Virus record (IMG/VR): IMGVR_UViG_3300012928_003129
Location: 12,182 to 76,181 of that record
Length of the DNA: 64,000 nt
Strand: one strand, 5' to 3'
From: a virus
Numbering within the stretch: the stretch's first letter is position 1; each line of letters opens with the position of its first letter. Made by a program: the position numbers and the translations under genes. Positions 9,373-10,195 of the stretch are shown here, in pieces. Under the pieces are notes generated by a model. It was not told where the DNA came from, made no database searches, and saw only the letters and a program-made list of their open reading frames with translations.

Positions 9373-9888
9373 ATGCCAAAATTTTATAGACAAAATAAAA
9401 AGAGAATTGACCCTCGTTACTTTTTAAACGAGACAACAAATAGAGATGAAAATATCAATGAGATTGATTTAGATTACGCATCCGACTTGGAATATCAATA
9501 CAACCAAGCAAAGGAATATGAAAAGAAGACTGAACAAGGATATACGGATAAACAAAAAGAGGACATGGAAACCTCTTTAGAGTTTAAAGTAATGCAACCA
9601 GAACGTGATGAAGTTTTATCTCAAGATGACCAGATCAAATTTGCAGATGTTATGAATGCATCCATGAATGGTGATCTTAGCCCTGAGCAAATTAAGGAAT
9701 TGATTCTTGCCACCGACGACGACAACCTCGACAACCTGAAGAAAGTTGTAAGCAAAATCGCTGGAAGTGGACAACAAGGGACCGGTGCTGGTATCGACTT
9801 ATCTAAGGTCGACCGAGATCGCGACGGTAAAATATCTGCTGACCAATTAGCAAATATTGCAAACGCTATAAAAAAGAATCAAGCTTAG
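9373..9888 (+). CDS. hypothetical protein with EF-hand-like loop
   Basis: GGAG SD; DRDRDGKISADQL matches DxDxDG loop; TAG at 9886-9888. Confidence 0.7.
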   Translation: MPKFYRQNKKRIDPRYFLNETTNRDENINEIDLDYASDLEYQYNQAKEYEKKTEQGYTDKQKEDMETSLEFKVMQPERDEVLSQDDQIKFADVMNASMNGDLSPEQIKELILATDDDNLDNLKKVVSKIAGSGQQGTGAGIDLSKVDRDRDGKISADQLANIANAIKKNQA

Positions 9889-10195
9889 GGGGTGACCAGG
9901 TTTCGACAGGGTAAGGATGGTAGTTCGTGCAAGGCTGTGTGGGTAGGCACAGTAAAAATACCCAAACAATAAACGCAAACGATGACGTTGAAACTTTCGA
10001 GGATTTTGCGCTTGCCGCATAACCCTTGAGGAGGTTTTCCAGATACCTTCTTAACCCAACATCTGGAATTGTTACTTTATATTATTATATATTTGCTACT
10101 TAATGGCGGTCTAGGGCCAGATCTAGACTAACCTTGTGAACGACGAATTATTTGAGATGCTTTGGACGCGGGTTCGACTCCCGCCACCTCCACCA
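9888..10195 (+). ncRNA. ssrA: tmRNA (one-piece)
   Basis: 5' GGGGGTG pairs with CACCTCC-A-CCA including G3:U wobble; T-arm GCGGG-TTCGACT-CCCGC; tag ORF 9975-10022 ANDDVETFEDFALAA*. Confidence 0.97.

Follow-up and report, generated by a model that had tools for sequence, protein, structure and literature searches.

What happens to the stop codon of a protein gene when its last base is also the first base of an RNA that is cut out of the same transcript? The question is raised by the DNA analysed here, a stretch of 64,000 nucleotides (the window; positions 12,182 to 76,181 of IMG/VR record IMGVR_UViG_3300012928_003129), in which a 171-aa open reading frame (ORF) ending ...CAA GCT TAG runs one base into a tmRNA gene. 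The first-pass annotation of this DNA had proposed that maturation of the tmRNA would create a non-stop mRNA, whose product the tmRNA itself would tag, and that the arrangement couples this protein to tmRNA activity as a sensor or a negative feedback loop. The geometry of that proposal stands and a co-transcript is likely, but the evidence argues against a device designed around this protein.

The window belongs to G000, a 76-kb IMG/VR viral fragment that is ~42% complete; its genes lie nearly all on the + strand, and the GC content is 33-42%. A gp23-type capsid protein and a gp21-type S77 prohead protease are encoded by relatives, the longest of which measure 190 kb; both proteins are present in G001 (100% complete) and G002 and were not found in the ~42%-complete G000. 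The source is an uncultured marine T4-like myophage. In the phage reference collection the sole match was 35 nt in an Alcaligenes phage, which was rejected as a relative; the match covers the tmRNA 3' end only and looks like an attachment site.

The RNA gene that meets the stop codon is a genuine tmRNA, detected by ARAGORN and matched end to end by the Rfam covariance model RF00023 at 124.7 bits (gathering score 47). Its tRNA-like domain has the hallmarks of tmRNA, namely a 7-bp acceptor stem, the G3-U70 alanine identity pair, a T-arm, and an encoded 3' CCA (ACCA at 10192-10195). In 74 clade tmRNAs among the matches listed, the acceptor stem shows compensatory changes at pairs 1, 5, and 6 (variants A-U, i.e. 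A1-U72, at pair 1, A-U at pair 5, and C-G at pair 6), the G3-U pair is invariant, and the discriminator A is never paired with base -1, which can be any of the four nucleotides. Since this covariation fixes the register of the stem, G9888 is both the third base of TAG and tmRNA +1. The overlap described in the first-pass annotation is therefore correct, with ARAGORN, RF00023, and the ORF in agreement, and the register claimed for the acceptor stem is firm. The 5' end of tmRNA is generated by RNase P (PMC3985003), and from the tRNA-like structure and this established processing we infer a cut between A9887 and G9888. The junction, ...GCT TA/G (here and below the slash marks tmRNA +1), thus has the mitochondrial-type geometry in which an ORF ends in T or TA at a tRNA-like 5' end.

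The tag, ANDDVETFEDFALAA, begins at a GCA resume codon at 9975 and runs for 15 codons to a TAA at 10020-10022. It has the alanine resume codon, hydrophobic degron, and stop of a tmRNA tag, and the frame and its ...[FY]A[LI]AA ending are preserved among relatives despite substitutions. The metatranscriptome runs X5 and X6 include contigs with a near-identical tmRNA body, and these contigs end inside the tmRNA. Neither clpX nor smpB was seen alongside the phage ClpP gene that lies downstream, and smpB was not found in any of five related phage records searched, so that host SmpB would be needed for tmRNA activity. Together, the ClpP and the ALAA-ending tag suggest that the phage supplies the tagging RNA and part of the protease. 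Some clade tmRNAs are built differently. Those at L134:1501-1954 (G006:80966-81419) and L133:117-565 are ~450 nt long vs ~308 nt, with an ORF of ~60 codons (MSNKESGYGIRADLL..., preceded by a strong SD, AAGGAG) nested in the pseudoknot region, after the tag frame and ahead of the 3' tRNA-like half. Unlike the window tmRNA, those of L003, L060, and L092 are without a full encoded 3' CCA (...CCTCCA/aat) and would depend on the host CCA-adding enzyme.

Table 1. Features at and around the tmRNA junction (positions in the window)
Feature	Position	Strand	Details
134-aa ORF	8856-9260	+	second leader type, MKLIMENWKRFIKE
22-aa Cys-rich mini-ORF	9293-9361	+	MSDTKKCKCCECCTCDCDKCTE
171-aa ORF	9373-9888	+	SD GGAG; conserved 20-aa leader, hypervariable body
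Leader module of the 171-aa ORF	9373-9432	+	MPKFYRQNKKRIDPRYFLNE, residues 1-20, ends F-L-x-E; T4 gp21-type (L/I)-x-E site
Variable cassette body	9468-9887	+	replaced exactly up to tmRNA +1 in a relative
TAG stop of the 171-aa ORF	9886-9888	+	G9888 = tmRNA +1; predicted RNase P cut 9887/9888
One-piece tmRNA gene, 308 nt	9888-10195	+	ARAGORN; Rfam RF00023; 3' CCA encoded
tmRNA acceptor stem GGGGGTG/CACCTCC	9888-9894 paired with 10185-10191	+	G3-U pair
tmRNA tag reading frame	9975-10022	+	ARAGORN coding part 88-135 within the gene
200-aa PP-loop (TilS-like) gene, then tRNA(CAU)	13946-14645		tRNA follows after 23 nt
Phage ClpP gene	14846-15481 (also given as 14846-15484)		PF00574, E = 8.9e-27; 4.6 kb downstream of tmRNA

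Taken alone, the one-base overlap in the window is no more than chance; 12 of the 53 protein-protein junctions in the window overlap as well, five by exactly 1 nt and seven by 4 nt. The junction was also followed through the clade, where the offset is the position of the nearest credible upstream stop relative to tmRNA +1. Four IMG/VR relatives found through the 171-aa ORF all have the tmRNA directly downstream (4/4), with offset 0 (TA/G) in L002 and L003 and -1 (TAA/G) in L001 and L004, and with unrelated ORF C-termini. A wider sample came from a clade-specific pattern drawn from the tmRNA 5' region, which gave 18 viral loci and at least 119 metagenome loci. None of 185,579 species genomes of bacteria and archaea matched this pattern exactly, and the phage is therefore left without an assigned host. 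Permuted two-piece tmRNAs, in which the pattern marks an internal piece and which made up about half of the matches of the first pattern, were excluded. Upstream genes were chosen by a credibility filter; a nearest-ORF rule over-counted spurious frames running into the tmRNA. The resulting census comprises 108 distinct junctions with a canonical 5' end among the matches listed, the window being represented by L124 (the same DNA).

Among these 108 listed junctions the commonest single state is offset -1, with the stop whole and directly against the tmRNA (34 junctions: TAA 28, TAG 5, TGA 1), and a further 34 at offsets -2 to -10 have spacers of 1-9 nt. The state of the window, offset 0, occurs six times and always as TAG. 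Stops inside the tmRNA account for eight of the 108 among the matches listed (offset +7 in three, +11 in one, and +26 in four), so that 14 junctions, those at offset 0 or positive, are predicted to lose the stop on cleavage. The remaining listed junctions lie at -13 to -21 (6/108) or at -39 or further (13/108), or have no credible upstream ORF (7/108). Offsets 0 and -1 together make up 40 of the 108 listed junctions and 40 of the 74 (54%) within the range 0 to -10, vs ~18% for an even spread, although the strength of the -1 peak is uncertain since the junctions are phylogenetically non-independent. When the listed junctions were collapsed by similarity of the last 90 upstream bases, 63 clusters were obtained, with -1 in 17, 0 in three, positive offsets in five, and -2 to -10 in 21; 14 of the 63 hold more than one offset state, and the states therefore interconvert. 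Among the matches listed, T at -3 (81%) and A at -2 (74%) are common even where no ORF abuts, which provides a ready-made TAA or TAT ahead of tmRNA +1. Clustering of stops at the boundary thus appears to exceed chance for the clade. What the clade conserves is thus flush packing, usually in a form that keeps the stop whole, and the window, with its stop one base short, represents a minority variant. No description of a flush stop/tmRNA junction across a clade was found in the literature searched.

Junctions with the stop inside the tmRNA present a stronger version of the situation in the window. In L246, L253, and L191 the stop lies at tmRNA +6 to +8 and in L156, L208, and L240 at +25 to +27; the ORFs concerned are long, several have an SD, and cleavage would remove the entire stop.

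Packing of this kind might be general to RNA genes in a compact genome. However, none of 17 tRNA junctions in the same phage loci is at 0 or -1 (Fisher p = 0.0013, with junctions that are not independent and represent effectively one or two independent lineages). This control was restricted to the clade; unrelated phages were removed, as were short frames whose apparent stop was the TAG conserved in tRNA D-arms (offset +9). The junction between the TilS-like gene and tRNA-Met always measures 14-23 nt in the clade, and the TilS-like/tRNA(CAU) pair with this spacer is kept in 13 related loci. Because the tRNA genes keep their spacers, generic compaction is insufficient, and something specific favours zero spacing at the tmRNA. 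By this comparison flush packing appears to be real and specific to the tmRNA; it resembles mitochondrial tRNA punctuation.

What favours zero spacing could be selection. RNase P would then end the upstream message at its stop or a few bases away, giving UTR-less, short-lived mRNAs on which release factors and tmRNA-SmpB compete, and the output of the hypervariable upstream genes would be tuned by processing and by rescue capacity. Such a reading draws on the excess at 0/-1 among the listed junctions, on the tRNA genes that are not so packed, on the occurrence of offsets 0 or -1 in three or more unrelated gene families, and on the preference of trans-translation for short 3' extensions (PMC3985003, citing Ivanova 2004 and Asano 2005). 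Yet neutral deletion would likewise pile junctions up against a hard boundary, many members tolerate a spacer of 1-20 nt or a dedicated promoter, and with shared ancestry and a tRNA control of one or two lineages, neutral deletion at a hard boundary and modest selection are not separable. We regard selected spacing in this broad sense as unlikely. A more deliberate arrangement, in which the zero spacer is selected and RNase P purposely places the 3' end of a hypervariable gene (internal-protein-like or for a Cys-rich peptide) at or inside its stop, so that the message is UTR-less or stop-less and yield is decided by competition between release factor and the phage tmRNA, is quite unlikely; if true, it would bring tRNA punctuation of the mitochondrial kind into a phage and link it to trans-translation, with a phage ClpP downstream.

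The gene upstream of the tmRNA in the window carries a conserved leader on a body that varies freely. Across 33 family members, pairwise identity is 88% over residues 1-20 and falls to 20% from residue 23 onwards; P14, R15, Y16, F17, and E20 are invariant, and F17-L18-x-E20 is essentially so. A leader followed by (L/I)-x-E and a hypervariable rest is the sequence signature of T4 internal proteins, and the family has it. Tandem paralogues of the leader family are present in L002, L003, L060, and L092. By analogy, the 171-aa ORF is probably a head-packaged internal-protein-like gene. Pfam returned only sub-threshold EF-hand matches for it, at residues 144-163, and an EF-hand domain was not accepted there (18.7 bits, below the cut-off of 25). 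The 171-aa, 134-aa, and 22-aa ORFs have no accepted Pfam domain and no PHROGs match. Further downstream, at 12087-13138, are two very basic, Lys-rich ORFs with similar leaders (..LIQIIKEEVEKLLSE and ..LIDIIKEEIEIILLE), one of which matches phrog_727 (unknown function); from their sequences these may be further head-packaged internal-protein-like genes.

Other families occupy the same place in relatives. Homologues of the 22-aa ORF adjoin the tmRNA at 27 related junctions among the matches listed, 15 of them at offset -1, and the family has TA/G (offset 0) in L009 and TAA/G in L056. In L003 the gene overlapping the tmRNA carries the leader type of window ORF 8856-9260. In all, the tmRNA-adjacent genes of the 108 listed junctions come from at least ten unrelated families, and therefore no particular protein is coupled to the tmRNA. 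The family of the window ORF (MPKF) itself has 44 members among the matches listed, at offsets from +7 to -18. The Cys-rich family is found clade-wide (the window ORF, L056, L066, L077, L009, and L022) as peptides of 22-31 aa that contain 8-11 cysteines grouped into CC/CxC runs, and every ORF has a strong SD; from this composition they could bind metal or be precursor peptides.

The point at which this variation ends is the tmRNA 5' end. An X1 contig from a relative matches 9279-9467, continues with 416 unrelated letters, and resumes its match over 9888-10255. In L134, a locus of a complete 190-kb phage, an orphan 46-nt copy of the tmRNA 5' end (L134:239-284) precedes an inserted 379-aa gene, which is followed by a promoter and the full tmRNA. 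The orphan copy is a scar of recombination and identifies the tmRNA 5' end as the boundary of the cassettes, which falls exactly at +1.

These observations bear directly on the proposed sensor, in which a selected one-base overlap would have RNase P produce a non-stop 171-aa message whose ssrA-tagged product acts as sensor or negative feedback. Its geometry is right, and the likely co-transcript, the phage ClpP, the ALAA-ending tag, and the 14 of 108 listed junctions that would lose their stop on cleavage all fit. The first-pass annotation had tied its reading to conservation of the overlap among relatives, however, and the G is shared in only six of the 108 junctions among the matches listed; 34 keep an intact stop at -1 and 34 have a 1-9 nt spacer. 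Coupling to this protein is likewise contradicted by a neighbouring gene that is drawn from at least ten families and, within the MPKF family, shifts from +7 to -18, as well as by a dedicated tmRNA promoter in some clade members. There is also no conserved arfA-like hairpin or processing element, and no rescue-related domain is recognisable in the 171-aa protein with Pfam or PHROGs. Thus, a sensor built around this protein is highly improbable, and the stop-less fragment would seem to be a side-effect in a minority of relatives and no conserved regulatory device.

As for transcription, the + strand near the window junction shows neither a sigma70-like promoter nor a terminator between ORF and tmRNA, and no stable structure at the junction itself (z = -0.82). 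Some spacer-bearing members have a sigma70-like promoter, TTGAAT-17-TATAAT, ending 11 nt before +1. With a threshold of at least 9 of 12 consensus matches, a tmRNA-proximal promoter was called in 4 of 20 loci whose upstream ORF is far or absent vs 0 of 88 in which the ORF abuts the tmRNA or ends within 21 nt, among the matches listed. With no promoter, terminator or fold in the window and none of the 88 such loci carrying a promoter, read-through transcription followed by RNase P cleavage is, we infer from sequence, the likeliest route to this tmRNA. Contigs from the X4 metatranscriptome span the junction in two relatives (...TTAA/G and ...CTAAT/G), with possible DNA carry-over. The RNA data are assembled contigs from four runs, which cannot show transcript ends or levels, and the ORF body at 9471-9878 is uncovered in the contigs of all four, which is uninformative on a co-transcript.

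It might be argued instead that the tmRNA has its own promoter within the 3' end of the ORF, in which case the overlap would be of little consequence. The candidate is TATAAAAA at 9866-9873, which agrees with the T4 late-box consensus TATAAATA at 7 of 8 positions and lies 15-22 nt before +1, and some clade members do have tmRNA-proximal promoters, as does the OM43 phage Melnitz, whose tmRNA sits directly behind an early promoter (PMC9004378). Nevertheless, the motif is absent from the abutting relatives and TATAAATA is not enriched in the window (7 found vs 7.7 expected), a chance frequency that makes it unusable for mapping late transcription here. The sigma70 scan was empty, and since there is no terminator, read-through transcripts would still be cleaved. 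An internal promoter of this kind is accordingly very unlikely to be the explanation.

Many relatives (L009, L020, L037, and L048; L002, L004, L032, L056, and L066) have a regulatory element on the other side of the tmRNA. Directly after the CCA there is either a near-perfect sigma70 promoter (TTGACA-17-TATAAT or TATACT) or, in other relatives, a conserved ACTTTTCTTATTTTGGAGACTACTTAA..ATG element placed before differing genes. Thus, one transcription unit ends with the tmRNA, and the unit after it starts with a mobile regulatory element.

We consider it probable that the tmRNA is a promoterless gene at a cassette edge, transcribed by read-through and released by RNase P, with the stop-less end as a by-product. 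The tmRNA would form the right-hand border of a hypervariable cluster of small genes (Cys-rich mini-ORFs, and internal-protein-like genes that have conserved leaders) and, lacking its own promoter in most clade members, the window included, would be transcribed by read-through from the genes before it; host RNase P would then free it by its cut at the junction. Because no ribosome-binding site is needed ahead of an RNA gene, the spacer could collapse to zero. The upstream ORF would then end at the first in-frame stop that the boundary offers, most commonly TAA/G, TA/G in the window, or a stop inside the tmRNA, and the shared G9888 would be the RNA-gene counterpart of the ATGA and TAATG overlaps seen genome-wide. 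The processed upstream fragment in the window would end ...GCUUA, without a stop and without a protective hairpin, so ribosomes that load after cleavage would stall and need rescue by trans-translation, and their product would be tagged. In most relatives the fragment would retain a complete UAA, either as its last three bases or followed by a few more; as short 3' extensions are tolerated by trans-translation (PMC3985003), release factors and tmRNA could compete there too.

A stop-less end could in principle be repaired. Bacterial polyadenylation is sub-stoichiometric and mainly destabilising, and this weighs against the idea that host poly(A) polymerase extends ...UA to UAA and so restores normal termination, even though the geometry matches the T and TA stops beside animal mitochondrial tRNA 5' ends (PMC4624183, PMC13677282). 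The assembled contigs, which show no read ends, gave no evidence of poly(A) at 9887, and with the stop complete in most relatives there is no sign that the clade depends on repair. Repair by polyadenylation is exceedingly improbable, and release by RNase P with the stop-less end as a by-product continues to be the preferred account.

Phage tmRNAs are known. Here a widespread marine clade, mostly without a tmRNA promoter, places the gene flush against whatever gene precedes it. By implication, a single cut by host RNase P would mature the tmRNA and also fix where a phage mRNA ends, at its stop codon, and the clade provides a testable case of mitochondrion-like punctuation in a virus. The clade also offers a natural series of junctions (stop intact, one base short, inside the RNA, separated by a spacer, or with a promoter for the tmRNA alone) that would be useful for examining the competition between release factor and trans-translation at mRNA 3' ends. 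If the arrangement is non-functional, it is an example of extreme gene packing and a warning that one overlap should not be taken for regulation.

Among phages, 402 of 18,146 genomes (~2%) carry a tmRNA (PMC9004378). The tmRNA of Melnitz is in two pieces and lies behind an early promoter and a glutamine riboswitch (PMC9004378). Like Melnitz and the pelagimyophages, the window phage has a complete tmRNA in a marine T4-like myophage without a phage smpB (PMC9004378). Unlike that of Melnitz, its tmRNA is one-piece, short (308 nt), and usually, within the clade, flush against the upstream ORF without a promoter, and a search of 185,579 bacterial species genomes with the clade pattern gave no match.

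The first-pass annotation had invoked E. coli arfA, in which a conserved hairpin is cut by RNase III and the product is a rescue factor active only when tagging fails. As in arfA, endonucleolytic processing is predicted here to remove the stop and to make the product a tmRNA substrate. Unlike arfA, the window junction has no conserved structure, the cut is tmRNA maturation itself, the upstream gene is variable and shows no connection with rescue, and relatives do not conserve the loss of the stop. Where arfA has a stop-removing element in all members, only 14 of the 108 junctions among the matches listed would lose their stop and the window junction has no stable structure; where arfA has a conserved rescue-linked protein, the clade has at least ten upstream families.

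For the upstream gene the comparison is with T4, whose internal proteins IPI-III and Alt carry a capsid targeting sequence (PMC3012670). The resemblance extends to a short leader ending (L/I)-x-E, a hypervariable rest, tandem paralogues, and, in relatives of the window phage, a gp21-type protease (PMC3012670). The leader differs in sequence and in length, 20 aa vs 10 aa in T4, and no sequence homology connects the family, which would be packaged and cleaved only by analogy, with the T4 proteins.

Co-transcripts of an mRNA and a tRNA that are split by RNase P occur in bacteria, for example E. coli secG-leuU. The window resembles secG-leuU in that a protein gene and a downstream tRNA-like gene would share one transcript and be separated by RNase P. 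In secG-leuU, however, a spacer follows the stop, whereas here the spacing is zero or negative. Closer to this are mitochondria, in which an ORF likewise reaches the 5' end of a tRNA-like structure, RNase P defines the mRNA 3' end, and only UA remains. There polyadenylation restores the stop, and junctions of this type are the norm; in the phages an incomplete stop occurs in six of the 108 junctions among the matches listed, a whole stop is commonest, and completion is not expected in bacteria. With these differences, mitochondrial tRNA punctuation appears to be the nearest analogue of the clade-wide flush junction.
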